DNA from: Candidatus Methylospira mobilis
GTDB taxonomy: Bacteria; Pseudomonadota; Gammaproteobacteria; Methylococcales; Methylococcaceae
Assembly: GCF_009498235.1 (NCBI RefSeq)
Contig: NZ_CP044205.1
Coordinates: 4,597,816-4,629,815 of the forward strand
Reading direction: 5' to 3'
Length of the DNA: 32,000 bases
Position numbers and translations under genes: made by a program. A model generated the notes under the pieces. That model did not search any database. It was not told where the DNA came from and saw only the letters and a program-made list of their open reading frames with translations. Positions 3,723 to 29,699 of the stretch are shown here, piece after piece. Every line of letters begins with the position of its first letter. Position 1 is the stretch's first letter.

Positions 3723-4691
3723 CTAGCGCCAGAAAATCGCTGCCGGCAATTCTTGCGCCGCGCCGGTCAATGACTCGCCGCCGGTTTCGCGCAGCAGCTG
3801 ATAGATTTTACCGATAGCGGCTTTTTCAGGGTTTCCCCATTGATTGACGATACCGGCGCAATAGTCGCGCCTCAGTATTTTTAATATGTTTTTATCGTTT
3901 TCCTGGGTAAGCGGCGCGATTTTGCTCCAGGCCTGATCCGAACTGCACAGCAGGCTGCGTGCTTCCGCCGACGCGGCGATAAAGGCATCCAGCTCTTTGC
4001 TGTTTTTGAGCGCCCAGCCGTTTTTGAAAACATACCCGAGATTGGGTACGGCGACTTCTATTCCTAGCCCGCGTATCATGTCGCGCCCGTCGAGTATGCG
4101 CCGGTAGCCTTGCGCTTCCTGGCGCGCGGCAAAATGCCAGAAAGTGAGAAGTGCATCCAGTTTCCCGTCCTGCAACTGCTGATTAAGCAGGGGTGGCGCG
4201 GCAAAAACCGGTTGCGCGTCGCGTTCCAGATTCAGCCCTGCCAGGCGGGTCGCGTAGGTTTTTAACAACAACCAGTTTTTGTCCAGACCGCCGCCGGCGA
4301 TTCCCAGCCGTTTGCCGCGCAAATCGGCCAGCGAGCGGACGGCGCCGCCAGCCGAAGCCATGATTGCGCCGGCTTGCGTTGAAAAAGGAATGAACTTGAA
4401 GTCTGCGCCTTGTTGATATTGGTGGGACACCCAAATCCAATCCGTTGCGATGATATCCAGGGTGTTGGCTTGCAGTCCGATTTTGCCGGCATCGGGGTTG
4501 GCGAGCAAATGCACGTCAAGCTCGACGCCATATTTTTTATCAAGTCCTTCGTTACGTATGGCCTCCAGTTCCCAGTTAACGGTTCCGAAAGTCAGCACGC
4601 CGATTTTTATGCTGCCGGATGATGCATCGGCCAGGACGGGTACGGACAGTATGAGTGCGATGAGTGCGGCGATGAATATACGTATCGACAT
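3723..4691 (-). CDS. Periplasmic solute-binding protein, NMT1/SsuA-TauA-like (nitrate/sulfonate/bicarbonate-type fold), with no cognate permease or ATPase in the window
   Basis: This is a 322-aa ORF with a Sec signal peptide (MSIRIFIAALIALILSVPVLA|DA). Its overall pattern resembles type-2 periplasmic binding proteins (IKIGVLTFGTVNWE..., RGKRLGIAGGGLDKNW). Family assignment is by eye, not by HMM. It starts 19 nt after the zapD stop. Confidence 0.6.
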   Translation of the reverse strand: MSIRIFIAALIALILSVPVLADASSGSIKIGVLTFGTVNWELEAIRNEGLDKKYGVELDVHLLANPDAGKIGLQANTLDIIATDWIWVSHQYQQGADFKFIPFSTQAGAIMASAGGAVRSLADLRGKRLGIAGGGLDKNWLLLKTYATRLAGLNLERDAQPVFAAPPLLNQQLQDGKLDALLTFWHFAARQEAQGYRRILDGRDMIRGLGIEVAVPNLGYVFKNGWALKNSKELDAFIAASAEARSLLCSSDQAWSKIAPLTQENDKNILKILRRDYCAGIVNQWGNPEKAAIGKIYQLLRETGGESLTGAAQELPAAIFWR

Positions 4692-5667: not shown

Positions 5668-6948
5668 TTATTTATAAAGCGGGCACGCATTCACTCTGTC
5701 TTCTATGAGCTGTTTAATTTCCTGAAACTCCGCTGATTCGACACTGTGGAAGCGCGTCTGAAAAGCGTATGAACTCAGATGCTCCGGTAAATCCAGAATA
5801 CGAGGCATATAAATGGTTTCTTCTCTTGTTTGGCTGATTTTATTTTGAGTAGTGAGCGCATCTTTGGGGCTGCGCGTCGCCATTTTTCCAAACAAGGTGC
5901 CTGCGCGATCGGCGGCGAGATCGGTGAAACTGAAGCCGCTGCCGCTATGTATATCATTGATTTCTTTTGCAAATCCTATCATATCGGAAAGCGTTCGGTT
6001 GCCAGACATTGCCAGCGTGGCGGACAGCATGAAATGCTGAGCGGTGTCGACCCGCCGATTGAGCAGCGTGCCAAGACGCGGTAATGGCTCCGGTGCGGGT
6101 AATGTGCCATTGTCCGTCAACAGACTCCAGCCGTTTGCGTATGCGGTCAAAACCAGTATTAATGCACGGTTTTCTTCGACGGGATCGCCCAAGCTTGCAG
6201 CGGCTGTTTCCGTACGTGCCTTTGCCAGTTGAAACAGCGGCTGCATCAATGAGCCCAGGCTGATAAAGCGTTTCTTGCCGGATTGCGCTATGAGTTCCGC
6301 CAGCCGGTTGTGATAACTAAGCAAGCGATCCCTGTTTGCCAGGTCTGATTCGAGTTCCTGCGCCTGTCCCGTTGTTGAATTGTTCCAATGCAGTGTAATG
6401 CTGACCTGGTCGCTGCCGATATGAACGCCCTGTACTATCCGGGTGGCGAGGTCGTCATAGTGTTTAATCGAAGGAAATAGTCGCACTGCTTTCATCAGAA
6501 CATAAACCAGCGGTTCCGGAATGACCAGGTGGCCGATATCCAGCCGTCTTATGATGGCGTGCGGCGTGTCGTCATCGGCGATCAGCGCAATATTGAGGTA
6601 TATATTTTTTTGCTGCGTCGGCAATTTTATGGCGGCGCGAAACTCCAGGTGTTTTTCCTTGATGCGCGTTTCGATACGACCCGCCAGCTCTTTTTTCATG
6701 AGCAGAAAATTAGCGATGGCGGTAATGTCTTCCGCCGTTAATCTGAGTGAGCGTAGCGATTTTTGCTGCAAAGGATTTTCACTTGCAGGCTGCAGGTTGA
6801 TATGCGGGGTAGGGAGCGCCAGTGGGTCCGGGTCGTTTGGAAATACCGAGGCTTTCCCCTGAAATGCCAGTTGTACCAGCAATAGTGGAAGTGTGACGAG
6901 CAGGCAGCCCGCCAGTAACGCTGTTTTGAAAAAGCGTCTTTCGTGCAT
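5668..6948 (-). CDS. Hypothetical protein with an N-terminal membrane anchor or signal-anchor
   Basis: This is a 426-aa ORF with no competing long ORF. It has an N-terminal hydrophobic helix (FKTALLAGCLLVTLPLLLVQLAF). I recognise no family; the distinctive motif is HSGSGFSFTDLAADRAGTLFG. Confidence 0.6.
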   Translation of the reverse strand: MHERRFFKTALLAGCLLVTLPLLLVQLAFQGKASVFPNDPDPLALPTPHINLQPASENPLQQKSLRSLRLTAEDITAIANFLLMKKELAGRIETRIKEKHLEFRAAIKLPTQQKNIYLNIALIADDDTPHAIIRRLDIGHLVIPEPLVYVLMKAVRLFPSIKHYDDLATRIVQGVHIGSDQVSITLHWNNSTTGQAQELESDLANRDRLLSYHNRLAELIAQSGKKRFISLGSLMQPLFQLAKARTETAAASLGDPVEENRALILVLTAYANGWSLLTDNGTLPAPEPLPRLGTLLNRRVDTAQHFMLSATLAMSGNRTLSDMIGFAKEINDIHSGSGFSFTDLAADRAGTLFGKMATRSPKDALTTQNKISQTREETIYMPRILDLPEHLSSYAFQTRFHSVESAEFQEIKQLIEDRVNACPLYK

Positions 6949-7262
6949 GGTAAGCGCTGATTTAATGGTTTTTCCGGTAAACCTGAAGCAGGTTATTGAT
7001 TTTATATTAAACGGCGTTGATCAATGTCGAAAAAAATCAGCGCTCAGCATGGTTTCAGCCGGTAATCTCTATTAAAACCGCATAGTCGGGGCCAGCCCGG
7101 CCTGCTATTGGCAGGTTTTGCTGGTTAATTATATCCGAGGAGCGGCGGGTCGGGCATTTTATGACTCCGTGGGCCTATAGGCTGCGCGGGTTGTTTATAA
7201 TGTACTATTTTACTTGGTAATAGATGTTGTTGTATAATCATTTCAAATAATGAGGGAGTGCC

Positions 7263-7745
7263 GTGAGACTGACAACCAAAGGCCGCTATGCAGTTACCGC
7301 CATGCTTGACCTGGCATGCCATGCCGACGGGCGACCGGTTACGCTGACCGATATTGCGAAACGGCAAGCTATTTCCTTGTCTTATCTCGAGCAGCTCTTT
7401 GCCCGCTTGAGGCGGGGAGGCATGGTTGAGGGCGTACGCGGCCCCGGCGGCGGCTACCAATTGAGTAAAGATGCGTCCGAAATCAATATTGCAGAAATAG
7501 TCGCCGCCGTGGATGAGGCGATAGACTCGACGCGCTGCGGCGGCAAAGCCAATTGCCGGGGGGCGGAGCCTTGTTTGACGCATGAACTATGGATGGGGCT
7601 TAGTGAGCAGATCAGGCAGTATCTGTCGACGATAACGCTTGCGGATGTTTTGCAGCAGCGCTCGGCGCGAGGTGCGGAGTCGGCAGCTAACCGTCATGAA
7701 CAACATGTCGAGGTAACCGCCCGCGTCGCGCTTGATTTCAGATAG
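7263..7745 (+). CDS. iscR: Rrf2-family [2Fe-2S] transcriptional regulator IscR
   Basis: The start is GTG, with GAGGGA 6 nt upstream. The protein is near-collinear with E. coli IscR ([18 protein letters not shown]..., [25 protein letters not shown]). The cluster ligands are in the IscR spacing C-x5-C-x5-C-x2-H ([17 protein letters not shown]). Confidence 0.9.
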
Positions 7746-7757
7746 CAGCGGAAATCG

Positions 7758-8645
7758 TCATAGCTGTGCTTTCACGGCTGCCGCCTGTTCAAGTTCGGCA
7801 ATGCGGCTGTTCAGCAATGCCTGGCGTTTTTGTTTGATCCAATCGTACCATTGCGACAGTCCTTCACCGCCGGTCGCGGTCAGCTGAATAATGTCGGCCT
7901 CGGCATTCACCTGGCGCACATAGTGCAGACAACGCTCCAGATCGAAACTCAAATACGGCAATAAATCGATCTTGTTGATCAGCACCAGCCCGGCGCGATG
8001 GAACATGTCCGGGTATTTCAGCGGCTTGTCCTCGCCTTCGGTAACCGACAAAATCACCACTTTGGCGGCCTCGCCGAGATCGAACAAGGCCGGGCATACC
8101 AGGTTGCCGACATTTTCGATGAACAGCACGGAATGATCGGCCGGTTTCAGCGTGATTATAGCCTGTTCGACCATGCGCCCGTCCAGGTGGCAGCCCTTGC
8201 CGGTATTGATCTGTACTGCGCCTGCTCCGGTGGCGCGTATGCGCTCGGCGTCGTTTTCGGTTTGCTGATCGCCCTCGATCACATTCAGCGCATACTGGTT
8301 TTTCAGGTCTTGTATGCTGCGTTCGAGTAAACTGGTTTTACCGGAGCCGGGGCTGGACACCAAGTTGAGCGCGAGTATGCAGTGTTCGTCGAAATAGCGC
8401 CGGTTGCGCGCTGCGTCGGCATCGTTGCGGCCGAGGATGTCCTGTTCGATCTTGATGATGCGCGCCTGACTCAGGCCGCCGATGTGCAGACCGGCAGGCC
8501 CCAGCCCATAGTGGTGATGGTGGGAATGCCCGTGCGCATGGTCGTGAGGATGATCGTGGTTATGTTGATGATCGCCGTGATGATGTGCATGCGCAGTATC
8601 TTCCGCATGGCTGTGAGTGTCGCCGCAACCGCATACTGTACACAT
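7758..8645 (-). CDS. hypB: Hydrogenase nickel-incorporation GTPase HypB (with His-rich Ni-storage stretch)
   Basis: It has an N-terminal MCTVCGCG metal site and a His-rich tract ([35 protein letters not shown]). It also has a G1 P-loop (GSPGSGKT) and an NKIDL G4 motif. Its start directly abuts the hypA stop. Confidence 0.95.
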
Positions 8646-8987
8646 TTACTCTACCTCCAGAGCTGTAATTTTCAATTCCTCGCCGCCGGTAATTTGCAGC
8701 TGGTGTCCATCGCACAGCGGACAAGGCGCTTGATAATTGCCCACGGAGACCTGTCTGCTGCATTCGAAGCACCAGGCCGTTCCGGGAGTTTCGGTAATTT
8801 CCAGCACCGCCTGTTCGGCGGGGCCGTCCTTGCGCAGAAACTCGAAACCGAACTGCAAAGCCTCGGGATCGACGCCCGCCATCGGGCCTATCGCCAGACA
8901 GACCTTGCGCACGCGCGTAAAGCGCTGTTCGCGCGCCTGCGCGTCGATGATATCAATGATGCCCTGGCAAAGCGATAGTTCGTGCAT
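8646..8987 (-). CDS. hypA: Hydrogenase nickel-insertion protein HypA
   Basis: This is a 113-aa ORF with an MHELSLCQ N-terminus (the MHE nickel site) and a zinc site CFEC...CPLC. Confidence 0.9.
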   Translation of the reverse strand: MHELSLCQGIIDIIDAQAREQRFTRVRKVCLAIGPMAGVDPEALQFGFEFLRKDGPAEQAVLEITETPGTAWCFECSRQVSVGNYQAPCPLCDGHQLQITGGEELKITALEVE

Positions 8988-8992
8988 GGCTG

Positions 8993-10156
8993 TTATTGTA
9001 CGCCATGTTCGAGTAGAACATTAAACGCAACGCAAGGGTCCAGCGTTGCAACCCAGGCTTCTATCCGCCGTTGCAGATGTTCTTCATCACGGGCATCCTG
9101 GCCGGTCAGCGCGGAAGAGAGCAGGCCCAGTGGATGAAAGTTCCATTGCGTCGGCGCGATGATGCGGTAAGCGGCGATCAGTCCGTCACGCACTTCTACG
9201 CGATGCAGCAAACGACCGCGCGATGCCTCGACCTGCACCAGCGCCGTGCCGTTGGCCGCAGGCACCGCGCAGGCGGATAACTTGCTGCATGTGGGAAGCT
9301 GTCGAGGCAGGCTATCGAACAACAGGCGTATTTCCAGTAAACGCGCCAGACTGCGTGCGTATAAACCGTTGCCATGCGTGGTCACGGCTTCCCTGATCAA
9401 TGGATGAACGGCCAGACGCGTGTAGGCATTGGTTTCACAAGGTTTGCCGCGCCAGTGGGGCGCGGCCAGGAACGCCTCGGCGTTTGACCCGCTCAGTACG
9501 GCTTCCAACTCTTCGGTTGCAGTCGATGGCAAGTGCTGGGTGTCGGCCTGACCAAATCCGGCCCACTCCGTTTGTGCGTAATGTTGCATGTAGCGTGCCG
9601 CAACACAAGCCTGGTCGCGTTGCCATTCGCCGACACCGGTAAGCGAAGGGTGGGTCCAGCCGAGAAAATCGCCCAGCATCGCATGCAGGCCAGACGACAA
9701 TGCGCATAACGCCTGTTCATAGGCGGACGCGTCAGGCGCAAGCGTCCCATAGGGAAATTGATAGAGCGCGGAGCTGTCCAGCGCCTTGCCGAATGCCTGC
9801 GCCGCCGCCAACATCGCTTGCGGCAACTCGGGTGTGATCTCTCCCGAAGATAAGTTAAGCAGCAGGTTCAACGCATGCTCCTTGATGATTTCCACGCTGC
9901 CGGCTATGGCGCGAAATTGTCCGACTGCAGGTGGAGCCGGAGCCAGCAACGCCTGCTCGAACGCGTTGACTGCGGCGCGCTGATGCGCATGTCCGCACAG
10001 CGCAAACATCAGCGAGAACAACTGGATGGCCTCCTGCGGCGTTTTTCCGTACGCCAGCTTGTCGACCGTCTGCACGGCGCGTCCGTGCAGTTTGACCCCG
10101 GCGATCCTGCCGTCAGCTATGCCGCAACGAATCGATAGTTCGCTTTTGCGATTCAC
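8993..10156 (-). CDS. hupK: HupK/HoxV-type hydrogenase maturation scaffold (NiFe large-subunit-like)
   Basis: This 387-aa ORF sits at the hupK position between the rubredoxin and hypA. It carries degenerate large-subunit motifs, keeping one Cys of each pair (LCGHAH for RxCGxCxxxH; DPCVAF for DPCxxC). Its GTG start overlaps the hupI stop (GTGA). Confidence 0.7.
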   Translation of the reverse strand: MNRKSELSIRCGIADGRIAGVKLHGRAVQTVDKLAYGKTPQEAIQLFSLMFALCGHAHQRAAVNAFEQALLAPAPPAVGQFRAIAGSVEIIKEHALNLLLNLSSGEITPELPQAMLAAAQAFGKALDSSALYQFPYGTLAPDASAYEQALCALSSGLHAMLGDFLGWTHPSLTGVGEWQRDQACVAARYMQHYAQTEWAGFGQADTQHLPSTATEELEAVLSGSNAEAFLAAPHWRGKPCETNAYTRLAVHPLIREAVTTHGNGLYARSLARLLEIRLLFDSLPRQLPTCSKLSACAVPAANGTALVQVEASRGRLLHRVEVRDGLIAAYRIIAPTQWNFHPLGLLSSALTGQDARDEEHLQRRIEAWVATLDPCVAFNVLLEHGVQ

Positions 10157-10341
10157 TCGCGTTCTGTCGCGTCCGCACAGGCCAGAAACACCTGCCTGGG
10201 GTTATCGCATTGCGGACAGCTCCAATCCGGCGGCAACTGCTCGAATCGGGTTCCGGCGGCAATCTGCGCACTGTCGTCGCCCAGTTCCGGGTCGTAGAGA
10301 TACCAGCAAATCCGGCACTCGTAACAGCCTGAACGGCTCAT
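10153..10341 (-). CDS. hupI: Rubredoxin (HupI-type, hydrogenase-associated)
   Basis: This is a 62-aa protein, MSRSGCYECRICWYLYDPELGD...PPDWSCPQCDNPRQVF, with two CxxC knuckles. The start is taken at the internal ATG 10341, which overlaps the hupH stop (ATGA). The longer 126-aa ORF version is rejected. Confidence 0.85.
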   Translation of the reverse strand: MSRSGCYECRICWYLYDPELGDDSAQIAAGTRFEQLPPDWSCPQCDNPRQVFLACADATERE

Positions 10342-11192
10342 GTTTCGTTTACCGTTTCCAGCTCCGCGCTTATGGACCGCAAACGTTCGAGCGTGTCTTC
10401 CAAGTCTTCGCGCGCGGCGAGGGCGACTTGGGGCATATCGGTGACTTCCAGCGTATTCAGTATTAACTGCTCGCCGGAGTTGAAATACTGCACCCACCAG
10501 ACATGCGGAAAGCGCGTCAGGCTGATACGGCAATCGCCATAGCCGCGCGACAATATCGACAATCCGGCCAGGCCCAGCGTTTCCACCAGAAAAGCGTTGT
10601 CTTCCGGCGACAGCGGCAACAGGGACAGGTTTATGATTTCTTCGCGCCCGGCGGCAAACGCCCCGGACTTTGCGGACAGTTCATGGAGCAGGGCGGGGGC
10701 GTTCATGAGCCCGGTCGGAAAGGTTTGCGGCAATTCAGCTTTCAGATCCTGGGTTTTTGCTGTCGCGAGTATGATGCCGGGGATATCGCCTGTTTCCAGG
10801 TAATCCTGCTGCAACTGCCCTCCCTGTGCGATTTGCACATGCCAGACGCCGGTAAAAACGGCCTCATCGACCATTACACTTTGCCCGGATCGATCTGCCA
10901 GGATGCTGATTTCCCCGGTGCCGAGCAGTTCGCGCGTAAATTTTACCGTTGCGGCATCGTGCGGCGATAGATCGACAGGGGTGCTGCCGACGCCGTTTAA
11001 ACAATTGACCAGCCCTTGTTTCAGCTGTGCCAGGATGTGGCGGCCATCTCCCTCGACGGAAACATCGTATAAGGAAGGCGCGGCAAAGGTATGCATCGCC
11101 TCCGGCATCGCTACATAGCGGCAATCGGGATCGTCGTAAGGGCTGATCGGCTCAGCGCAGTCGGAAGCTATTTCGAGATGTTTATCGAGCAC
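10338..11192 (-). CDS. hupH: Hydrogenase expression/formation protein HupH (HoxQ family)
   Basis: This is a 284-aa ORF with a GTG start. Its C-terminal region (LSILSRGYGDCRISLTRFPHVWWVQYFNSGEQLILNTLEV) matches the HupH C-terminal domain pattern as I remember it. It lies upstream of the rubredoxin, hupK and hypAB. Confidence 0.7.
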   Translation of the reverse strand: MLDKHLEIASDCAEPISPYDDPDCRYVAMPEAMHTFAAPSLYDVSVEGDGRHILAQLKQGLVNCLNGVGSTPVDLSPHDAATVKFTRELLGTGEISILADRSGQSVMVDEAVFTGVWHVQIAQGGQLQQDYLETGDIPGIILATAKTQDLKAELPQTFPTGLMNAPALLHELSAKSGAFAAGREEIINLSLLPLSPEDNAFLVETLGLAGLSILSRGYGDCRISLTRFPHVWWVQYFNSGEQLILNTLEVTDMPQVALAAREDLEDTLERLRSISAELETVNET

Positions 11193-11374: not shown

Positions 11375-12196
11375 TTAATCGCAGTTCCTTGATTGAACGT
11401 CATTTTCTGTTTTATTCCAAAGTGCAGGCCTGAACATTGACCATACTCCGACCAAGATCGCCGGAACACTGAGCCATTGCCCCATACTCAGCGCCCAGGC
11501 GCTGTCCAGCGTGGACTGATCAGCCTTGAAATATTCCATGACGAAGCGCGCTCCGAACACCAGCGCCAGAAAACGCCCGAACAACAGGCCCGGAGGGCAG
11601 TTCGATGTATGTCGCAGGTAAAAACGTAGCTGCAAGAGAAAAATCAGCAGGTAACACAGCGCTTCGTAGAGTTGCACTGGATGGCGGGGAACCGCATCGA
11701 TGCGCGTGAACACCACGGCCCAAGGCTGATCGCCGGGTTTTCCGAGGATTTCCGAGTTGCAGTAATTGCCCAGACGAATCAGAAAACCGCAAGCCGGCGC
11801 CCAAATGGAAATCCGGTCGCATATCCATAAAAACGGCTGCTCAGGAAAACGCCGTGCATACAGCCAAAGCGAAATCAGCACCCCGACTACGGCGCCGTGA
11901 CTGGCCAGGCCTCCTTCCCATATCGCGAAAATCTTCGCCGGGTGCGCGAAATAGAAATCGGGATTGTAAAACAGCACATGGAACAGTCTGGAGCCGACCA
12001 CAGTGCCGGCGATGATATGGAACAGCAGGTCGTGCACCTGATCGACAGGCTTGTTTTCGCGTTTGAATATCACCATGAAAAACGGCGTGCCCAATGCGAA
12101 AGTTGAAGCAAACAGCAGGCCGTACCAGTACACCGGCACTGTGGTGCTGCCGAAGTGCAGCGCAAACGCGACGGGGTCCGGATTCCAGGTCAGCAT
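11375..12196 (-). CDS. lgt: Prolipoprotein diacylglyceryl transferase (Lgt) homologue, divergent type
   Basis: This is a 273-aa polytopic membrane protein collinear with Lgt. Shared elements are VYWYGLLF, IWEGGLASHGAVVG (E. coli VWDGGMSFHGGLIG), RLGNYCNSEILG (RLGNFINGELWG), PRHPVQLYEA (PRHPSQLYEL), RFVMEYFK (RIIVEFFR) and SMGQWLSVP (SMGQILSIP). It starts 9 nt after the CYP51-Fdx stop. Confidence 0.8.
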   Translation of the reverse strand: MLTWNPDPVAFALHFGSTTVPVYWYGLLFASTFALGTPFFMVIFKRENKPVDQVHDLLFHIIAGTVVGSRLFHVLFYNPDFYFAHPAKIFAIWEGGLASHGAVVGVLISLWLYARRFPEQPFLWICDRISIWAPACGFLIRLGNYCNSEILGKPGDQPWAVVFTRIDAVPRHPVQLYEALCYLLIFLLQLRFYLRHTSNCPPGLLFGRFLALVFGARFVMEYFKADQSTLDSAWALSMGQWLSVPAILVGVWSMFRPALWNKTENDVQSRNCD

Positions 12197-12205
12197 AGGG
12201 TAGTG

Positions 12206-13834
12206 CTAGCCGGTCTGAGTGATGCGGATTGCCTGGGTCGGGCAATATTTTTCCGCCTGCCGCGCTTTTTCCAGCAGCGCGTGATCGGCCTGCGCATCAA
12301 GCAGCGTAACGCGTCCTTCTTCATCGACATGGAAAATTTCCGGCGCTTCCCCCGTGCAGGCGCCGTGACCTTTGCAAAGATCCATATCGATTTCTACCTG
12401 AAAGCCGGCCGCTGCGTGCGGGCAACCTCCGGCAGCCTGGTGGTGTAGACCGGGCGATGCGTTGTCTGAGCTGGCGGTTGACGCGCGGTTATTCCGCTGG
12501 TAGCGGATCAAGCAGGGCGAGCCGGGCTCGACTACCATTTTTTTATAGTCGTCGCGGTAGCTTTCCGCGGGGGCTGACAGTTCGAAGCGGTAGCGCATCA
12601 GTAACACGCTGATGATGGCTTTGATCTGGAACAGCGCAAAGGCATTGCCGGAGCATTTGTGTCTGCCGCCGCCAAATGCCTGCCAGCCGTACAGATTGCG
12701 GTCTTCGCCGCGTTCGGGCGCATACCGGTCGGGGTCGAATTGCTCGGGGTTCGGAAACAGCTCGGCGCTGCGATGTGTTACCGAAGGCGCGGCGCAGACA
12801 AACTGTCCCGCCTTGATCACAAAATTCTTTACGCGAAAATCCTTGACGACTTTGCGCATCAGGATGATCAACGGCGGGTGCAGTCTCAGTACTTCCCTGA
12901 TTACATTTTCCAGGCGCGGCATCTGCCGTAACGATTCGAAGGTGACCGGGTTGCCGTCGCCGAACAACCCTTCCAGTTCCTGTTGCACCGCTTGCAGATG
13001 TTCTGGGTGACGCAGCAGTTCGATCAATACCCAGGCGGTAGTGCCTGAGCTGGTGTGGTGGCCTGCAAATACCGCGGCGATCAGCATGCCGGTGATTTCG
13101 TGCGCGCTGAGTTTGCTGCCGTCGTCGTAGCGCGCGTCGATCAGCGCCTGGAAGACGTTGGTCGACTGTTCCCGGCTGTGCGCGCGTTTTTCCATGATGG
13201 CGGCCACCAGCTCCTGCAGGCGCGCGCGCGCGCGGTCCCTGCGCTTGAATACCGGCAGCGGCAGGTAGGGGAAAACATAGGCTACCGGCTGTATGCCGTG
13301 TTCCAGATCGTGATAGATTTCGGCGAACTGCTCGTTGAGCTCGTGGCGGAATTCCGATCCGAGCAGACAGTGGCTGGAAGTATAGATGGTCAGCAGTTTG
13401 GTGAATTCCAGCAGGTCGAGTTGCCCGCTTTCGCCCCAGTTTTGAATCAGTCCTTCGACTTCGGCAACGATGGTGTCGGAATAGGTGCGCATCGGTTTGT
13501 CGCGCAGCGCCGGCATCAGCATTTGCAATTGCTGGTTTTTACGTTCGATCGGCGCATCGAACACCACGCCTTTTCCGAATATCGGCGTCATGATTTTGTA
13601 GGCCGGCCCTTGATCCAGCACATCGTCAGGAGCTCGGTAAAACGCCTCGCTGGCTTCGGCGCCTGTCAGCAATACCATGTTCTGATGAAACATTTTGAAT
13701 TCGGCGACATCCCCGAGCCGGGCGCGCAGTCGCATCATGAAGTCATGGGGGTTCTTGCCGAAGTCGAGTATATGTCCGAGCAGCGGCAGCGAGCCGCTCA
13801 GTTTGGGCGGTGTCAGGGCGTCTTGATTATTCAT
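12206..13834 (-). CDS. cyp51: Sterol 14-alpha-demethylase CYP51 fused to a C-terminal 3Fe-4S-type ferredoxin
   Basis: This is a 542-aa ORF. It has the CYP51 B'-helix signature YKIMTPIFGKGVVFDA, the I-helix AGHHTSS and the heme loop FGGGRHKCSGNAFA. A Ser/Ala-rich linker (NNRASTASSDNASPG...AAAG) follows. The last ~64 aa form a ferredoxin (VEIDMDLCKGHGACTGEAPEIF...AEKYCPTQAIRI). Confidence 0.93.
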   Translation of the reverse strand: MNNQDALTPPKLSGSLPLLGHILDFGKNPHDFMMRLRARLGDVAEFKMFHQNMVLLTGAEASEAFYRAPDDVLDQGPAYKIMTPIFGKGVVFDAPIERKNQQLQMLMPALRDKPMRTYSDTIVAEVEGLIQNWGESGQLDLLEFTKLLTIYTSSHCLLGSEFRHELNEQFAEIYHDLEHGIQPVAYVFPYLPLPVFKRRDRARARLQELVAAIMEKRAHSREQSTNVFQALIDARYDDGSKLSAHEITGMLIAAVFAGHHTSSGTTAWVLIELLRHPEHLQAVQQELEGLFGDGNPVTFESLRQMPRLENVIREVLRLHPPLIILMRKVVKDFRVKNFVIKAGQFVCAAPSVTHRSAELFPNPEQFDPDRYAPERGEDRNLYGWQAFGGGRHKCSGNAFALFQIKAIISVLLMRYRFELSAPAESYRDDYKKMVVEPGSPCLIRYQRNNRASTASSDNASPGLHHQAAGGCPHAAAGFQVEIDMDLCKGHGACTGEAPEIFHVDEEGRVTLLDAQADHALLEKARQAEKYCPTQAIRITQTG

Positions 13835-13919
13835 GAGTGTCCAACGAATCCGTTATGGGATGATCCGGTGATGATAAAGTATTGCTATGATATTTATTAG
13901 ATGCGCCGCACATGAGAAC

Positions 13920-13988
13920 ATCTTTTTTATCGTTATTTATCTTTTTTATCTTTTAATCAACGCAAATTTATCTTTTAATCAACGCAAA
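13920..13988. repeat. AT-rich direct-repeat array in the cyp51 / NTF2-like divergent intergenic region
   Basis: 'tttatcttttaatcaacgcaaa' is perfectly and tandemly duplicated at 13945-13966 and 13967-13988. 'atcttttttatc' occurs at 13920-13931 and 13939-13950. The core ATCTTTT therefore appears four times. Confidence 0.9.
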
Positions 13989-14000
13989 GGAAAAATCAAC

Positions 14001-14603
14001 GTGCCTGCTTACCCTCGTGAAGAACTGGAAGAAATGGTGGCGCGCTGGCTGCAGGCCAACCGCGTGGCGGAAAACCAAGGCGACTGGATTAAAAGTCTGG
14101 GCGCTATGTACACGGAAGACGCTGAATATGGCTGGAACATGGGACCTAACCGCGAGTTTCTGGCGCGCGGGCGGCGTGAAATCGAAGAATGGGCTTTGGG
14201 CGCTCACATGGAAGGGTTCGAAAAATGGCGTTACCCTTACGACAAGATTATCATTGATGATAAACAAGGTGAAATAATCGGCATCTGGCGTCAGGTAGCG
14301 CCGGTGCTGCGCCCGGATGGCAGCGAATACGAAGTAGCCGGTCTGGGCGGTTCGTGGTTCCGCTATGGCGGTAACTTTCAATGGAGCTGGCAGCGCGATT
14401 TTTTCGATTTGGGCAATGCGAAGGCTATGTTCATGGATCTGGCGGCCGATGGCCGGCTTGAACCTTCGGTCAAGCGGCGTCTGGGTAAGCTGGCGCGCGG
14501 ACAGGCGCTTCCCGGCGTATATGCGTTGCATGCATCGCCGGGTGTTCTGCATGGCGCGAAAGCGCTCTTTACCATGGCGCGGATTGCCTTACTGGGAAAA
14601 TAA
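14001..14603 (+). CDS. Uncharacterised NTF2/SnoaL-like fold protein (200 aa)
   Basis: The start is GTG 14001, with AAGGA 10 nt upstream. The longer 238-aa ORF N-terminus reads through the AT-rich repeats and looks non-coding. The sequence pattern (N-terminal helix EELEEMVARWLQANRVAENQGDW, ...YTEDAEYGW..., a beta-rich half IIGIWRQVAP...YEVAGLGGSWFRYGGNFQWSWQRDFFD) resembles SnoaL/NTF2-family proteins. The fold call is by eye. Confidence 0.55.
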   Translation: MPAYPREELEEMVARWLQANRVAENQGDWIKSLGAMYTEDAEYGWNMGPNREFLARGRREIEEWALGAHMEGFEKWRYPYDKIIIDDKQGEIIGIWRQVAPVLRPDGSEYEVAGLGGSWFRYGGNFQWSWQRDFFDLGNAKAMFMDLAADGRLEPSVKRRLGKLARGQALPGVYALHASPGVLHGAKALFTMARIALLGK

Positions 14604-14708
14604 GCTTTGGTAGTTTTGTTTATGTATTTGTATTTTAGTACAGTAATGGTAATAGGCAGTCCGCCGATAATTATTTGTAGACGCAAGTATTGTTTTGTCG
14701 CAGAATAT

Positions 14709-14741
14709 CCACAAAGTGTGGAAAGTATACCAGTAGTGTGG
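14709..14741. promoter_or_regulatory. Short inverted repeat plus direct repeat upstream of the cyclase gene (possible operator)
   Basis: 'ccaca-aag-tgtgg' lies at 14709-14721. 'agtgtgg' recurs at 14715-14721 and 14735-14741, a 20-nt period. The element lies inside a 275-bp non-coding gap. Confidence 0.2.
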
Positions 14742-14878
14742 CGGGTCAGATTAAAGCCTATGAGTTAGTCAGGCAATTTCGCGCACAGGAATACGGGCTG
14801 TACACTCCGTGGTGAGATTTTCGGCCGATGTGGATGCAGTCTTGTCACGCTTGAAAGAATCCGGAAATATTTGGTCAC

Positions 14879-16888
14879 ATGACAGTATCGAATAAGGACG
14901 ACCCACAAGACAGTGCGCTATTAACCCGGGAAGCAATACTCGGGTCGTCTAGACGAGCTCAACAGTATCTGCTGTCATTGCAGAAAACGGAAGGGGATTG
15001 GGAAGGCGAGATGGTTTGGTGCAGCATGATACTTGCCCAGGCAGTGATCGTGCGCACCATCACCGGGCATCCCTATACTGAAAGTGAAAAGCGGCTTATT
15101 GTCCGGCATTTTAGCGTAACTCAAGCGACGGATGGTTCATGGGGGATGCATCCGGAATCTCCGGGCTATGTTTTTTTCACCACGCTTGCCTATGTAGCGC
15201 TGCGTCTGCTCGGGCTGTCTCCACAGGATGATCTGCCGGCGCGCGGACTAAGCTGGATACATGCGCAGCCGCAGGGCGTCAAAGCCATACCTACCTGGGG
15301 AAAATTCTGGCTGGCCTTGCTGGATCTGTACGACTACCGCGGTTTGAATTCTGTCCCGCCGGAGTTGTTTTTGTTGCCTGAATGGCTGCCGTTCCATCCC
15401 CGCCGTTATTATTGCCATACACGCCAGATTTATCTGGCGATTGCTTATCTTTTCGGTTTGAGATTTCGTGCCGAATTGCCGGATGGATTGCGTGACAGCC
15501 TGAGGCAGGAGCTTTATGGCGATGAGTATGCGCAAATAGACTTCGCTGCGTTGAGACATCTGTTGGCTCCCAGTGATGTTTACGTGCCGATTACCCCGCT
15601 GTTGCGCGGTGTTTACGATCTGCTTGCCGCCTATGAGAGCGTGCATAGCAAGGCATTGCGCAATAAAGCCTTGGGGTTGTGTTTGAAACATATCGTTTAT
15701 GAGCTGAAAGTCAGCAATTATCAAGGTATTTCCCCGGTAAGCGGTCTATTGAACTGCCTGGTGTTGTTTGCAACGGATAAGCAGCACCCCGAATTGGCGC
15801 CGAGTCTGGCCGGAATAGAGACTTGGCGCTGGCAGGATGAAGAGGAAGGTTTGCGATATGTGGGCGCACACTCCAATACATGGGATACCGCTTTTGTATT
15901 GCAGGCGCTGGCCGAGATGCGTGCGCCGGCTCCGGAGGTTAATGGTGCGGTCAATCGCGCGCATGCCTTTTTGGCGCGCGCGCAGATCGTTGACGAATTG
16001 CCCGATTACCAGTCTCACTGGCGCGATAGCGCGCTGGGTGGCTGGTGTTTTTCCGATGGCCGCCATCGCTGGCCGGTCAGCGATTGCGCCGCCGAAGCGT
16101 TAAGCGCGTTGTTGTCGCTCTATGAGCATCCGGACATGTCGATAGACCGTCCGTTCGAGCGCCTACGCCTGGATCAGGCTGCGGACTTCATTCTGTCCAG
16201 GCAGAATGCCGATGGCGGTTTTGGCACCTACGAACGCCGGCGCGGTGGTAAACTGCTGGAAAAGGTTAATCCATCGGAAATGTTCGGTCAGTGCATGACC
16301 GAGCTTTCCTATATCGAATGCACCAGTTCGTCGCTGGCGGCTCTCGCGCATTACCGTAAACGCTTTCCATCGCATACAATAACAGGATTAAATGGCGCGA
16401 TAGCTCGGGCTGTGACTTTTTTGCGTGCCCAGCAGCTCAAGGATGGTTCTTTTCAGGGGTTTTGGGGCATCAACTATACTTATGCCTGTTTTCATGTCGT
16501 GCGTAGTTTGCGCATGGCTGAGGTTGCAGTGGATGATGGATTAGTGCAATCTGTGGCACAATGGTTGCTGACGCATCAAAAGCCAGATGGCGGTTGGGGC
16601 GAGCATTATACGAGTTGTCTTGGCGGTCGCTATATCGAACATGAGCAAAGCCAGGTCGTGATGACCGGTTGGGCGCTGATGGCGCTGGTTGAGGTATGCC
16701 CGCATGATCATGTTGCGATTCGGCGCGGTTACGGCTGGCTGCTGACGCAACAGCTTGAGAGCGGCGCATGGCCGCGCCAAGCGGTAAATGGGGTTTTTTT
16801 TGGGGCAGCCATGCTGGATTATCGTTTATATCACAGCTATTTCCCCGCTTGGGCGATATTCCGTCTGGCGCGCTTGCTGGGTGAATAG
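14879..16888 (+). CDS. osc: Oxidosqualene cyclase (lanosterol/cycloartenol/parkeol synthase class)
   Basis: This is a 669-aa ORF with multiple QW repeats (RQNADGGFGTYE, QLKDGSFQGFWG, QKPDGGWGEHY, QLESGAWPRQ). The catalytic motif is VSDCAAE (the OSC-type DCTAE), not the DxDD of squalene-hopene cyclases. The WDTAF motif is present. Confidence 0.92.
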   Translation: MTVSNKDDPQDSALLTREAILGSSRRAQQYLLSLQKTEGDWEGEMVWCSMILAQAVIVRTITGHPYTESEKRLIVRHFSVTQATDGSWGMHPESPGYVFFTTLAYVALRLLGLSPQDDLPARGLSWIHAQPQGVKAIPTWGKFWLALLDLYDYRGLNSVPPELFLLPEWLPFHPRRYYCHTRQIYLAIAYLFGLRFRAELPDGLRDSLRQELYGDEYAQIDFAALRHLLAPSDVYVPITPLLRGVYDLLAAYESVHSKALRNKALGLCLKHIVYELKVSNYQGISPVSGLLNCLVLFATDKQHPELAPSLAGIETWRWQDEEEGLRYVGAHSNTWDTAFVLQALAEMRAPAPEVNGAVNRAHAFLARAQIVDELPDYQSHWRDSALGGWCFSDGRHRWPVSDCAAEALSALLSLYEHPDMSIDRPFERLRLDQAADFILSRQNADGGFGTYERRRGGKLLEKVNPSEMFGQCMTELSYIECTSSSLAALAHYRKRFPSHTITGLNGAIARAVTFLRAQQLKDGSFQGFWGINYTYACFHVVRSLRMAEVAVDDGLVQSVAQWLLTHQKPDGGWGEHYTSCLGGRYIEHEQSQVVMTGWALMALVEVCPHDHVAIRRGYGWLLTQQLESGAWPRQAVNGVFFGAAMLDYRLYHSYFPAWAIFRLARLLGE

Positions 16889-16997
16889 GGTTAAGCGTAC
16901 TTGATCAGCTGCGAGGTTGACTGGTGCGGTTTGGAATGGCCGTGGGCATGTGGCGAATTTGCCAGCATATAATTTTAGCTAATTTCAGGAGCTTGAA

Positions 16998-18353
16998 ATG
17001 CAAGAAACGACAGCTAACCGTGAGCGTGTAGATGTCCTTATTGCCGGAGGGAGCATAGCGGGTGTCGCGGCAGCGGCGGCGCTTGCTCAGTTGGGATTGC
17101 GGGTATTGATCGTCGAGCCTTCGCCGGACCAGGGCCGGCGTCTCGCCGGAGAATTAGTGCATCCACCCGGTATCGATGGACTACGAGAGCTTGGGTTGCT
17201 TGCCGAGCACGATGGTTTGGGGCAGAAGGTGCAGGGATTCGCCGTGTTTTCCCAGGGAGGGGAGGCCGGACCGCAGCCCATGGTCTTGCCTTACGGCGAG
17301 GTAGACGGCAAACGCCCGGTAGGGCTGGCTATCGAGCATACGACTCTGAAGGAGCGATTGCTGGAGCGCGTAAAAACCTTTAACGCCGTTGACGTCTGGC
17401 AAGGAGCTCGCGTAACCGCGATGAATTCCGTGGAGGGAGGATCGTATGTTGCTACTGTGGATACCGGTTCTGCCGAGTCTGAATTGCGCGTTCATGCCAG
17501 ACTGATACTGGGGGCGGACGGGCCGATGTCGCAAATGCGCAAGATGATCGGTATCCAGTACGAAACTCAGCGCTATTCCGGCATGATGGGTACGGAAGTC
17601 AGTGATGCGCATTTACCCTATCACGGCTATGGTAATATCTTCCTGAACCAGGTGGGAGTGTCCTATGCCTATGCGATAGGCGGCGGCCGCGTACGCGTGA
17701 TGTTCGAAATTCTGAAGGGTGCGGATCAGAAGGGATCGATAGCTGCGCATTTGGCGGCGTTCCCTGATGAATTCAGACGGGAAGTGCAGGAAGCCATGAT
17801 GGCCAGCAAACCGCTGGCGGCGGCGAACTACTGCATCATTCCGGAAACCACGGTCAAAGGCAACGTCGCCCTGATAGGCGACGCGCGCGGCTGCTGTCAT
17901 CCGCTGACGGCGTCCGGCATCACTGCCGCCGTTAAGGATGCGTTTGTGCTGCGCGACGCTTTGCGTAAGCATAACCTGGATGTAACCGCCGCCCTGCGCG
18001 AGTATGCGCAGGTGTGCGATCAATTGCAGCTAACCCGTCGCACTCTGGCGGAAGAACTGCGCGAAGCGTTTCTTGCCGAAACGCCGCAGGCGAAATTGCT
18101 CAAGCAATGTATCTTTTCCTACTGGAAAACCAGTCCGCAGGGACGCGCCGAGTCCATGAATCTGCTGTCCACGCTGAATAGCAGCATTATTGCGCTGGCA
18201 GTGCAGTACGCGATGGTGGCGCTGCAGGCTTTCCGGTTGCTGCCGCAATGGATAAAAAGCAATGCGCTGATGGATTGGGTCCGCGGCGTGATCGGTCTGC
18301 TTTTCAAAAGCTTGAGCTTTCAATATGTGGCGATAACACAGCGAGTCAAATAG
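16998..18353 (+). CDS. sqmo: Squalene monooxygenase (squalene epoxidase), FAD-dependent
   Basis: This is a 451-aa ORF with AGGAG 7 nt upstream. It has the dinucleotide fold DVLIAGGSIAGVAAAAALA...VLIVE. GELVHPPGI matches the eukaryotic GELLQPGG motif, and GDARGCCHPLTASGITAAV matches GDAxNMRHPLTGGGMT. It lies directly downstream of the cyclase. Confidence 0.88.
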   Translation: MQETTANRERVDVLIAGGSIAGVAAAAALAQLGLRVLIVEPSPDQGRRLAGELVHPPGIDGLRELGLLAEHDGLGQKVQGFAVFSQGGEAGPQPMVLPYGEVDGKRPVGLAIEHTTLKERLLERVKTFNAVDVWQGARVTAMNSVEGGSYVATVDTGSAESELRVHARLILGADGPMSQMRKMIGIQYETQRYSGMMGTEVSDAHLPYHGYGNIFLNQVGVSYAYAIGGGRVRVMFEILKGADQKGSIAAHLAAFPDEFRREVQEAMMASKPLAAANYCIIPETTVKGNVALIGDARGCCHPLTASGITAAVKDAFVLRDALRKHNLDVTAALREYAQVCDQLQLTRRTLAEELREAFLAETPQAKLLKQCIFSYWKTSPQGRAESMNLLSTLNSSIIALAVQYAMVALQAFRLLPQWIKSNALMDWVRGVIGLLFKSLSFQYVAITQRVK

Positions 18354-24057: not shown

Positions 24058-24134
<77 letters not shown>

Positions 24135-24142
24135 AGAAAAAC

Positions 24143-24175
24143 AAAGGCTTGCATGCTATGCAAGCCTTTTTTATT
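24143..24175 (+). terminator. Rho-independent terminator after tRNA/rpoD
   Basis: The hairpin is 'aaaggcttgca-tgcta-tgcaagccttt', followed by a T6 tract (24167-24172). Confidence 0.85.
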
Positions 24176-24243
24176 TCACCAATTTGCCTCTCAGGTACAA
24201 TTTCGGTACAGTGCTCAGCACAAAACACTGTAGCGAGGGTCTT

Positions 24244-25326
24244 GTGGCGACCATTGTTAAGACAGATTCCGGCACCTGGAAAGCGGTTATCCGAAAGGCC
24301 GGATGGCCGGACTGCGGCCAAGACTTTTCGCACTAAACGGGATGCTGAAGATTGGTCACGACGCACTGAAGATAAAATAGTTCGCGGTATCCATATTCAG
24401 CGTGCACCCGCTGAACGCATGACGGTTAAAGCCGCTCTTGAAAAATACCAGACCGAAGTAACGCCGACCAAACGGCAATCAACGCAATCCGCAGAGGTTA
24501 GAAGGGCAGCAATTCTGATAGCTAATTTAGGGAAATATTCCCTTATTGCCCTTACTGCTGAAATTATTGCCCAATATCGCGATGAGCGTCTTGCCGGCGA
24601 CTTGAACGATAAAGGCGAGCGCGTGCCACGTAGTAACAGCACCGTTCGCCTGGAGCTTGCCCTTCTGGGGCATATGTTCACGGTGGCCACCAAGGAATGG
24701 GGCTTGGGGTTGACCTATACCCGGTTCTCAACATCCGTCGCCCTGCTCCCTGCCCAGGGCGAAACCGCCGACTTTCTACCGAAGAAGAACAGCGGCTTTT
24801 CGAAGCTGTTGCCGCGTACTCAAACCTCATGCTGGGTTGGATTGCCGGTATCGCCATTACCACTGGCATGCGTTGGTCTGAGATTTTGACGCTGCGTCGC
24901 AACCAGGTTGACATTGAACGCCGCATCGTGCGGCTGCTCGAAACCAAAAATACCTCTCCGCGCACCGTGCCATTGAGCAAGGAAGCTACCGAGTATTTTC
25001 GGCAGGCGCTGAATAATCCGATTCGCCCCCTTGATACGGATTTGATTTTGTTTGGCGAGCCGGGCAAGGATGGCAAGCGCAAGCCTTATCAGTTCAACGC
25101 AGTCTGGGTGCGGCTGAAAAAGAAGCTGGAGTTAGATGACTTCCATTTCCACGATTTGCGCCATGAAGCGGTTAGCCGCTTTGTCGCGTCGGGTTTGAGC
25201 GATCAAGAAGTTTCCTCGATCAGCGGCCACCGCTCGATGCAAATGTTGAAACGCTACACCCATTTGCGCGCTGAGGATTTGGTCGATAACTTGGATAAGT
25301 TGGCCACAATCGACTCTTTAAAGTAA
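24244..25326 (+). pseudogene. Tyrosine recombinase / phage-type integrase, disrupted by two frameshifts
   Basis: Three ORF pieces read as one integrase. The first is (GTG 24244) MATIVKTDSGTWKAVIRKAGWP. After a shift near 24310 comes TAAKTFRTKRDAEDWSRRTEDKIVRG...KEWGLGLTY. After a shift near 24720 comes NPVLNIRRPAP...GMRWSEILTL...HFHDLRHEAVS...GHRSMQMLKRYTHL, which has the catalytic R, HxxR and H...Y. Confidence 0.85.
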
Positions 25327-26552
25327 CGGCGACATTTTTTTATTCTATCTGAAACGGATTTTTTGTGACGGATATTTAGGGTATCCGCTATTTTCTGTTG
25401 ACTCAATCCCTCCCGCTGCATCCTTAGAATTTGAATATCAAGCTCTTTCAAGCTTGGTGCGTGTGCATAATCATAAGCAAATCGTCTGATTACCTTATCG
25501 GCTTCAATATCGACGCCGGGGAAGCAGCTCAAAATACTGTAGCTTTGTATCAGAGTCGATTGAAACCGCTCCTTAAGCTTTTTGCGGGCGATTCCATTTT
25601 GTTGGCTAAAATTGCCGTAGTCGTGATCTCTGCAAAAGCGTCGGCTGTTGTATGTATCGTTTTTATTCTCTTTTTGGTTATTTTCGTTTTCTGCGTGAGC
25701 GGAGAGCCGCCAACACATCTCGCAAAAGGGATAATGCTCATTATTATGGAGTGGCAGTTCGTCAATTGCGCCGCTATTTCCTGGTTGCTTGCGGCTGATT
25801 AGAGACTCCAACAAACATAGCAAAGATTCTAACGTAGCTATTATGGGTTCAACTTCGCTCCGCATCGATTCATATTGTCCTGTAAGGTGCAACGCTCTGA
25901 TACAGGCTCTAAACTCACCCTCAATGGATATCAAATTTCCTGTTTTTGCAAAACAACGCTTAGCTTCCTGGGACAGCGTCGAGTCCGAGTAAAATAAATC
26001 CGCCAATTGCGAAAGATAAGAGCGGACAGCACCATCAATATCCCGCCGCAAAAAAGTCCACACCGAGCGGTTTTTCATATTTAGGCTGAGCGAAGGGCGG
26101 TCGTCAACGTTTTTCGTGAATTTGGAGATGGCAGCCGCAACTACAGGATCGCAGTTTGGCCGTGGCAAACAAAAATCGATCAGCGGGTCAGGCCGGAATT
26201 CGGTTTTCGTGCGCTTTTTTCTCGGTTTGATTTCGGTTGGGAACTGGCCCTCTACCAGCGCTGAGGCGAGCATTGAGGTGAGCTTTTCCATGCTCCAACC
26301 GCAATTATTAACGATTACGAAATGACCCGGCGGAATTGGGGGATCTAACTCGCCTGTCGGCCAGACCTGTTTCTGTTTTTGGGGTTTATAAATCAGCTTT
26401 TTCGTTCCGTCAGGATATGTGCGCCAAACCTCGCCTTGCAGAGTGCGCATGAGACATGGGGTGGAATGCCTGATAAAAGTTTTGTCCATAACGGATACGT
26501 TTTTTGTCTGGTTGTGGGGTCTACGGGTTTCTATTGAAAACCCCGTGCACAT
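25254..26552 (-). CDS. Hypothetical protein, low-GC, with central Cys/His motif and C-terminal helix-turn-helix
   Basis: This is an intact ORF that opens at TTG 26567. ATG 26552 is preferred because GAGG lies 7 nt upstream, giving 432 aa. It has a CxxC...CxxH motif (YPFCEMCW ... RRFCRDHDY). The C-terminal GLSQQKIADTLNIRHKKSVSDRIKK resembles sigma-r4/resolvase-type HTH domains. I recognise no family. Confidence 0.6.
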   Translation of the reverse strand: MCTGFSIETRRPHNQTKNVSVMDKTFIRHSTPCLMRTLQGEVWRTYPDGTKKLIYKPQKQKQVWPTGELDPPIPPGHFVIVNNCGWSMEKLTSMLASALVEGQFPTEIKPRKKRTKTEFRPDPLIDFCLPRPNCDPVVAAAISKFTKNVDDRPSLSLNMKNRSVWTFLRRDIDGAVRSYLSQLADLFYSDSTLSQEAKRCFAKTGNLISIEGEFRACIRALHLTGQYESMRSEVEPIIATLESLLCLLESLISRKQPGNSGAIDELPLHNNEHYPFCEMCWRLSAHAENENNQKENKNDTYNSRRFCRDHDYGNFSQQNGIARKKLKERFQSTLIQSYSILSCFPGVDIEADKVIRRFAYDYAHAPSLKELDIQILRMQREGLSQQKIADTLNIRHKKSVSDRIKKCRRYFKESIVANLSKLSTKSSARKWV

Positions 26553-26579
26553 TGGCAGGCCTCGCAAGTCTCACTCGCG

Positions 26580-27461: not shown

Positions 27462-29647
<2,186 letters not shown>

Positions 29648-29699
29648 CTACTCCGGATACTTTATTAAAACCAAAGGGGAAGGCAGCGGGTATTGAGAC

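Follow-up and report, generated by a model that had tools for sequence, protein, structure and literature searches.

A compact sterol gene cluster of Candidatus Methylospira mobilis very probably consists of four core genes flanked by a lineage-specific bystander, lgt

Candidatus Methylospira mobilis, a gammaproteobacterium of the Methylococcaceae, is a spiral, microaerophilic wetland methanotroph. In a 32,000-nucleotide stretch of its genome (the window), five open reading frames (ORFs) that extend over 6,979 bp, from an Lgt homologue through a squalene monooxygenase (SQMO), very probably represent the core four-gene sterol cluster of Methylospira together with a bystander found in this lineage. 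Between these two genes lie a CYP51-ferredoxin fusion (CYP51fx), an NTF2-like ORF and an oxidosqualene cyclase (OSC) (Table 1). All five ORFs were present at the coordinates given beforehand when the ORFs of the window were checked, and profile and PDB searches verified their families, such that the original prediction of a compact five-gene sterol locus within 7 kb holds. The five proteins are exact sequence matches to Candidatus Methylospira mobilis QFY44796–QFY44800, which NCBI names Lgt, cytochrome P450, NTF2 family protein, 2,3-oxidosqualene cyclase and FAD-dependent oxidoreductase/squalene monooxygenase. The genes form two divergent units on either side of a 166-bp region, with the NTF2-like gene, OSC and SQMO running rightward and CYP51fx followed by lgt running leftward. 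Lgt, which had been described as lying inside the locus, is actually at its edge. Family memberships were tested here, and the enzymatic steps that we propose are those of the Methylococcus capsulatus orthologues.

To count as an OSC, the cyclase had to exceed the cutoff of the OSC-specific model, fall short of that for hopene cyclase and carry the catalytic Asp in a DCxAE motif rather than DxDD. It scores 927.2 bits against TIGR03463 osq_cycl (cutoff 851) and 259 bits against hopene_cyclase TIGR01507 (cutoff 431). The best PDB match is human lanosterol synthase (1w6k) at 476 bits, versus 159 bits for squalene-hopene cyclase, and the VSDCAAE motif aligns with human VSDCTAE, the site of the catalytic D455. 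A hopene cyclase, the alignment outcome that had been named as fatal to a sterol locus, is rejected on all three grounds: the score below the TIGR01507 cutoff, the motif and the far higher score against lanosterol synthase. What would the enzyme make? In bacterial OSCs, position 453 (human numbering) is the sole product-diagnostic site (Wei et al., 2016; PMC4919349). Since the residue at this position is Val, as in lanosterol-type enzymes, rather than the Ile of the cycloartenol type, we infer that the product of this Group-1 bacterial OSC of the lanosterol-synthase type is lanosterol.

SQMO begins 109 nt downstream of OSC and contains the Pfam SE (82.9 bits, cutoff 20.1) and FAD_binding_3 domains. 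Its best PDB match is human squalene monooxygenase (SQLE, 6c6n; E = 4.7e-20), and it is 59–64% identical to its Methylocaldum and EFPC2 orthologues. The SE score is low beside that of the SQMO of Group-2 type (280 bits), and an SQMO gene also follows OSC in 13 related loci of Group-1 type. These features point to a divergent bacterial squalene monooxygenase that accompanies Group-1 OSC, with squalene epoxidation as its predicted activity.

CYP51fx carries a Pfam p450 domain (residues 10–421) and a Fer4_15/Fer4_13 domain (residues 480–538) in one polypeptide. It aligns over residues 4–539 with the structure of M. capsulatus CYP51fx (6mcw; E = 7.7e-260). The first to the 56th of its PDB matches are all CYP51, with that of Mycobacterium tuberculosis at about E = 1e-135. 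Its translation contains FGGGRHKCSG, the haem-Cys motif, and AGHHTSS, the motif of helix I. With both the CYP51 and the ferredoxin features present, the protein is assigned as a predicted sterol 14alpha-demethylase fused to ferredoxin.

The NTF2-like ORF had no assigned sterol role in the original prediction, which proposed that such embedded genes might hide missing chemistry. The chemistry has since been described: following the clue of an NTF2-superfamily hypothetical protein co-localized with methanotroph sterol genes, M. capsulatus MCA0111 (H156_RS0106965) was identified as 8,14-Bsr by heterologous expression (Lee, Giner and Welander, J Bacteriol 2026; PMC13277303). That enzyme converts the CYP51 product, 4,4-dimethylcholesta-8,14,24-trienol, to 4,4-dimethylcholesta-8(14),24-dienol, and the proposed chemistry is hydride transfer to C-15 followed by protonation at C-9 (PMC13277303). 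Mutation of Y37, Y43, Y78 or D133 reduced the function of the M. capsulatus protein, and the reaction itself was demonstrated for this protein and for homologues from the myxobacterium Sandaracinus and from M. tuberculosis (PMC13277303).

Several lines of evidence place the ORF in this family. The comparison with the M. capsulatus protein used the translated cloning and mutagenesis primers (Table S3 of PMC13277303) rather than its full sequence. The peptides match residues 1–5, 32–41, 38–48, 73–83, 75–85, 128–138 and 131–141 of the window protein, with identical numbering, and include MPAYP (from residue 1), SLGAM[Y]TEDA (32), TEDAE[Y]GWNMG (38), FEQWR[Y]PYDHV (73), WSWQR[D]FFDLG (128) and QRDFF[D]LGNVK (131). 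The six residues studied in the literature, Y37, Y43, Y78, Y80, D133 and D136, are at the same positions and are invariant in an alignment of 21 sequences. Members of the family are nearly always 200 amino acids (aa) long and 67–77% identical across Methylococcaceae, and the window protein is about 70–77% identical to the Methylococcaceae members of the characterized family. In Pfam, the ORF matches SnoaL_4 only, weakly and below cutoff, and a PDB sequence search returned spurious matches to designed repeat proteins only. An AlphaFold model built from 21 homologues (pLDDT 82.8, pTM 0.77) predicts helices at 137–149, 155–165 and 182–198 after an alpha+beta core that extends to about residue 135. 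Foldseek matches of this model in the PDB are exclusively NTF2, SnoaL, PhzA/B and KSI folds. As modeled, the protein would have the NTF2-like cone fold, C-terminal helices and length of about 200 aa expected of the family. The gene divergently adjoins CYP51fx across the 166 bp between them, and this pairing also occurs in 50 of 80 related loci.

The GTG start codon is preceded by an AAGGA ribosome-binding site. A 238-aa version that starts at an ATG at position 13887 and appears in one RefSeq record was rejected, as its extension consists of AT-rich intergenic region and a tandem duplication. Nearly all homologues have 200 aa and an MPAYP-like N terminus, which, together with the AAGGA before the GTG, also rules out the longer form. 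We conclude that the NTF2-like ORF is an 8,14-Bsr orthologue (hereafter, Bsr), which by analogy with the M. capsulatus enzyme would catalyze the same step. The missing chemistry thus most probably lies in the embedded gene, as the primer peptides, the six residues, the conserved neighborhood and the NTF2 fold indicate. Its role was published in 2026 and is not new here.

To what extent is this arrangement shared? Scanning metagenomes with the Bsr alignment as seed yielded 80 loci, in which sterol genes were sought by tblastn; CYP51fx was found in 50, OSC in 50 and SQMO in 42. Two further loci come from complete genomes: L093 is the cluster of Methylocaldum szegediense and L094 that of Methylococcus sp. 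EFPC2. Among the 35 well-flanked loci, defined by at least 2.5 kb upstream and at least 4.8 kb downstream of Bsr, 28 have all four of CYP51fx, Bsr, OSC and SQMO, 3 have OSC and SQMO only and 4 have none. With all four genes in 28 of the 35, linkage to CYP51 is normal for Methylococcaceae clusters. It is also drawn in the sterol clusters of Fig. 1b of PMC13277303, and the earlier view that such tight linkage is unusual does not stand.

The clusters follow two architectures, which parallel the division of methanotroph OSCs into Group 1 and Group 2 that has already been described (Wei et al., 2016; PMC4919349). In the type seen in the window, CYP51fx diverges from Bsr-OSC-SQMO and OSC is 63–68% identical to that of the window. 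Among the four-gene clusters, 7 of 10 Group-1 loci have this divergent arrangement, as do M. szegediense and EFPC2. These last two share the gene order and divergence of the window exactly, with identities to the window of 71–73% for CYP51fx, 72% for Bsr, 64–67% for OSC and 59–64% for SQMO, and a CATG....CATYTTT motif upstream of Bsr. They differ beyond CYP51fx, where they have a DHCR24-like FAD_binding_4 gene, a putative C-24 reductase, whereas in the window lgt comes next, followed by hydrogenase-maturation genes. This DHCR24-like gene (521–548 aa) lies downstream of CYP51fx at 6616–8193 (−) in L093 and 6625–8190 (−) in L094, and also in L014–L019. A remnant of it was sought in the window by tblastn and none was found (best E = 0.23).

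In the second architecture (L050–L092), CYP51fx, Bsr, OSC and SQMO are co-directional; examples are L064 (10683–12926), L053 (5651–7015), L055 (14539–15594) and L084 (15734–16840). The same four functions lie side by side, with Bsr 67–70% and CYP51fx 60–63% identical to those of the window. However, the 747-aa OSC is of the eukaryote-like Group 2, shares only 34% identity with that of the window and does not reach the TIGR03463 cutoff. The SQMO, likewise eukaryote-like, scores 280 bits against Pfam SE and is about 23% identical. Bsr and CYP51fx are kept in both architectures although the OSC and SQMO types are swapped. Some Group-2 clusters continue with SdmB-like, SdmA-like and BstABC-like genes, which do not occur in the window; the BstABC-like set in some of these loci consists of MMPL, substrate-binding protein and lipoprotein genes. 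Across other methanotrophs, the genes attached to the clusters are SdmB-like (SDR/3beta-HSD), SdmA-like (Rieske), MMPL (BstA-like), phosphonate-binding-type (BstB-like) and DHCR24-like. As had been predicted, no later-step gene is visible in the window, which encodes no DHCR24-like or other C-24 reduction gene, no Rieske/SDR (SdmAB) genes for C-4 demethylation, no C-14 reductase and no BstABC transport genes.

The region between CYP51fx and Bsr is itself conserved. When 10 of these intergenic regions are aligned, the motif CATGAGAACATCTTT stands out as conserved and is preceded by an extended −10-like box, TGcTATGAT in the window and TGnTATnAT as the consensus of the aligned loci. The pattern CATGNNNNCATYTTT is present in this region in the window and in L013–L019, L029, L030, L093 and L094, which represent several genera. 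On both strands of 1.19 Mb, it has 18 matches, compared with about one expected by chance (our own estimate). Sixteen of these lie 49–90 nt upstream of Bsr in divergent clusters like that of the window, and several of the 16 are duplicate contigs or near-identical loci, with roughly six different sequences represented. In L014–L016, the motif is a perfect inverted repeat, CATGAAA-N7-TTTCATG, and L017–L019 and L093 have one mismatch. From its sequence and position, the motif may be an operator or leader element with a putative regulatory role. To our knowledge, no regulator has been described for sterol synthesis in bacteria. A perfect tandem duplication of a 22-bp unit, TTTATCTTTTAATCAACGCAAA, immediately precedes the Bsr ribosome-binding site in the window; the close relative L013 carries a single copy. 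This duplication creates the extension of the spurious 238-aa ORF. An Rfam search of the locus found no RNA family, and scans for promoter and terminator consensus sequences gave scores no better than those of shuffled sequence.

The remaining gene of the locus, lgt, starts 9 nt past the CYP51fx stop codon. Because no terminator is seen in the sequence of this short junction, lgt and CYP51fx are probably co-transcribed. The protein matches Pfam LGT (213 bits) and exceeds the cutoff of the TIGR00544 equivalog (150.6 bits versus 118.9), and thus belongs to the same Pfam and TIGR families as the E. coli phosphatidylglycerol:prolipoprotein diacylglyceryl transferase (5azb/5azc). In an alignment with E. 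coli Lgt (5azb), Y26, H103, R143, N146, E151, G154, R239 and E243 are kept, and the essential residues Y26, R143, N146, E151, G154, R239 and E243 are invariant among 13 relatives. The window protein differs from the E. coli enzyme in having Val for Y235 and Lys for R246. Its closest relatives are the Lgts of Methylococcaceae, and those of Ignavibacteriales, Salisaeta and Plasticicumulans come next. The Lgts of the Methylospira lineage (the window, P0001 and P0002) have RLFH where ten other aligned Lgts have RLGH and E. coli has RIGY, a Gly-to-Phe change in a transmembrane helix at about residues 69–73.

Lgt does not belong to the conserved methanotroph sterol cluster, as its adjacency to sterol genes does not recur across genera. 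It lies beside sterol genes in 1 of the 80 Bsr loci, L013, which is a close relative of the same lineage (98% Bsr identity). Among the 35 well-flanked loci it is missing throughout, even when matches up to E = 1e-3 are allowed. Viewed from the Lgt side, sterol adjacency is confined to close relatives with 87% identical Lgt. The next homologues, in M. szegediense and EFPC2 (59–62% identity), are among unrelated genes away from the sterol clusters; the sterol cluster of EFPC2 maps to about 1.13 Mb, its lgt to about 3.65 Mb. The slot beyond CYP51fx varies from locus to locus and holds the DHCR24-like FAD_binding_4 gene, BstABC-like transporter genes or unrelated genes. Compared with those two genera, Lgt has diverged in the same range as SQMO (59–64%) and OSC (64–67%), which fits a vertically inherited orthologue. 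We judge from these sequence comparisons that Lgt is a housekeeping lipoprotein diacylglyceryl transferase and a bystander without a specific sterol role. A rearrangement in the Methylospira lineage would have brought lgt and the genes that follow it (hupH, a rubredoxin gene, a hupK-like gene, hypA and hypB) up against the 3′ end of CYP51fx. The two passenger genes of the original prediction therefore part ways, the NTF2-like gene having acquired a role (PMC13277303) and Lgt being judged to have none. Likewise, the random variability of neighbors that was to speak against the locus is seen in the synteny comparison for Lgt, which is no conserved passenger, and not for the NTF2-like gene.

Outside the sterol locus, the window contains several other features (Table 1). 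The [NiFe]-hydrogenase maturation block is directly downstream of lgt on the same strand, and its 387-aa hupK-like product has a NiFeSe_Hases C-terminal match. Between ftsK/zapD and the gene for an Rrf2-family regulator are a 426-aa ORF without a Pfam match and a 322-aa secreted NMT1-like substrate-binding protein, a weak match at 24.6 bits; neither has an evident link to sterols. A tRNA-Met(CAT) gene directly after rpoD marks the start of what looks like a small, decaying integrated island. Here, a phage-type integrase is split into two overlapping ORFs and is probably frameshifted, and the GC content falls to 0.457. The island also contains a 437-aa ORF without a Pfam match, a 155-aa ORF and an ORF with a ParE-toxin domain. 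Farther on, a thiamine pyrophosphate (TPP) riboswitch (Rfam RF00059, 58.9 bits) precedes a 624-aa ORF that appears thiC-like, judged from its translation alone.

Table 1. Features of the sterol locus and of the rest of the window, in window positions
Feature	Position	Strand	Length	Basis
Lgt homologue	11375–12196	−	273 aa	Pfam LGT; TIGR00544
CYP51-ferredoxin fusion (CYP51fx)	12206–13834	−	542 aa	p450 + Fer4_15/Fer4_13; 6mcw alignment
Divergent intergenic (promoter) region CYP51fx/Bsr	13835–14000	none	166 bp	
Conserved motif, putative operator or leader	13911–13925	+		Alignment of intergenic regions
Tandem duplication of 22-bp unit	13945–13988		2 × 22 bp	Perfect repeat
NTF2-like ORF, 8,14-Bsr orthologue	14001–14603	+	200 aa, GTG start	NTF2 fold; primer-peptide matches
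OSC, predicted Group-1 lanosterol-synthase type	14879–16888	+	669 aa	TIGR03463
SQMO, predicted	16998–18353	+	451 aa	Pfam SE; human squalene monooxygenase best PDB match
NMT1-like substrate-binding protein	3723–4691	−	322 aa	Weak match
ORF	5668–6948	−	426 aa	No Pfam match
Rrf2-family regulator	7263–7745	+		
[NiFe]-hydrogenase maturation block	7758–11192	−		hupH, rubredoxin gene, hupK-like, hypA, hypB
Apparent integrated island	24058–27773			
tRNA-Met(CAT)	24058–24134			
Phage-type integrase, two overlapping ORFs	24149–24889, 24697–25326			
ORF	25254–26567	−	437 aa	No Pfam match
ParE-toxin-domain ORF	27252–27773			
thiC-like ORF	27770–29644	−	624 aa	Translation
TPP riboswitch	29694–29817	−		Rfam RF00059

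How might the four core enzymes work together? In the pathway that we propose, SQMO would convert squalene to 2,3-oxidosqualene, which the Group-1 OSC would cyclize to lanosterol, its predicted product. CYP51fx would then remove the 14alpha-methyl group of lanosterol, with electrons supplied through its own ferredoxin domain, to give 4,4-dimethylcholesta-8,14,24-trienol. Finally, Bsr would reduce and isomerize the 8,14-diene to 4,4-dimethylcholesta-8(14),24-dienol, the hallmark methanotroph sterol core. The predicted end product is, by analogy, the same as that of M. capsulatus, which has the same four enzyme families, a CYP51fx (H156_RS0104645, PDB 6mcw) that matches the window protein over its full length, ferredoxin included, and a Bsr with identical residue numbering. 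However, the M. capsulatus Bsr gene lies among genes without a known sterol role, whereas in Methylospira the four genes are contiguous. The family assignments of SQMO, OSC, CYP51fx and Bsr and the conservation of the cluster uphold the reading of the region as a bacterial sterol locus.

Some observations weigh against parts of this interpretation. In the OSC, a cycloartenol-like His stands at the position of human C449 and an Ala at human position 381; both misfit the pattern of eukaryotic lanosterol synthases, and the position of V453 alone carries the product assignment. The genome paper for strain Shm1 makes no mention of sterol, squalene or lanosterol. It could also be argued that the cluster is a recently acquired horizontal island or a decaying remnant rather than a working native pathway, given that the phylogeny of methanotroph OSCs conflicts with the species tree, with both Group 1 and Group 2 occurring (PMC4919349), and that the tRNA-linked integrase island is 6 kb away. 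However, all of the ORFs are full length and intact, their GC content (0.52–0.59) is similar to that of the flanks, several Methylococcaceae genera share the four-gene block, at identities that track each other, and tsaD, rpsU, yqeY, dnaG and rpoD separate the integrase island from the cluster; we regard this explanation as extremely improbable. We give equally little credence to the idea that the NTF2-like ORF is KSI-like or polyketide-cyclase-like, such as a plain isomerase or a sterol carrier. That idea can draw on the absence of a recognizable cofactor-binding site, on a sub-threshold SnoaL_4 match as the one Pfam hit with no PDB sequence match, and on PhzA/B, SnoaL and KSI as structural neighbors. 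It is countered by a 200-aa protein that is collinear with, and about 70–77% identical to, the characterized Bsr family, by matches to the M. capsulatus peptides around every mutated residue and by a genomic partner that is likewise a CYP51-ferredoxin. Moreover, even the distant M. tuberculosis and myxobacterial homologues catalyzed the reaction (PMC13277303).

The assignment of Lgt as a bystander also meets some resistance. The similarity between the window protein and E. coli Lgt is modest (109 bits), and the 9-nt spacing of lgt from CYP51fx implies that the two genes are expressed together, possibly for a functional reason and not by accident. A second lgt copy, if present in the genome, would make this one a possible specialized paralogue. 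One alternative is that Lgt is a sterol-pathway enzyme recruited to the CYP51 operon, which could transfer a lipid or diacylglyceryl group to the sterol 3-OH or could be dedicated to lipidation of sterol-transport lipoproteins. The close spacing without an intervening terminator, the retention of the adjacency in relatives with 87% identical Lgt and lineage-specific substitutions such as RLFH for RLGH would fit such a role. However, the gene is missing from 79 of the 80 Bsr-centered loci and from all 35 well-flanked ones, its closest relatives in two other sterol-producing genera are far from sterol genes, the protein passes the TIGR00544 cutoff with all known prolipoprotein-modification residues kept, and its divergence equals that of its vertically inherited neighbors. 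We consider recruitment very unlikely and continue to favor a four-gene core with lgt as a neighbor by rearrangement. A further proposal, that lgt was captured by the CYP51fx unit, that this Lgt instead gained a sterol-related acceptor, or that CATG-N4-CATYTTT is the operator or leader of a sterol regulator, strikes us as a long shot, though less so than recruitment. If true, lgt capture would tie the maturation of lipoproteins to the supply of sterols; outer-membrane sterol-transport proteins such as BstC, whose lipidation is hypothetical, would be candidates.

Taken as a whole, the locus is best read as an ordinary methanotroph sterol cluster, and both the role of Bsr and the Group 1/Group 2 split are already in the literature. 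Synteny alone independently re-derives the gene whose part in forming the 8(14) double bond was demonstrated in 2026, and CYP51fx, Bsr, OSC and SQMO emerge as a conserved four-gene module across methanotroph lineages. With this cluster, Candidatus Methylospira mobilis joins the predicted producers of 8(14)-unsaturated 4,4-dimethyl sterols.

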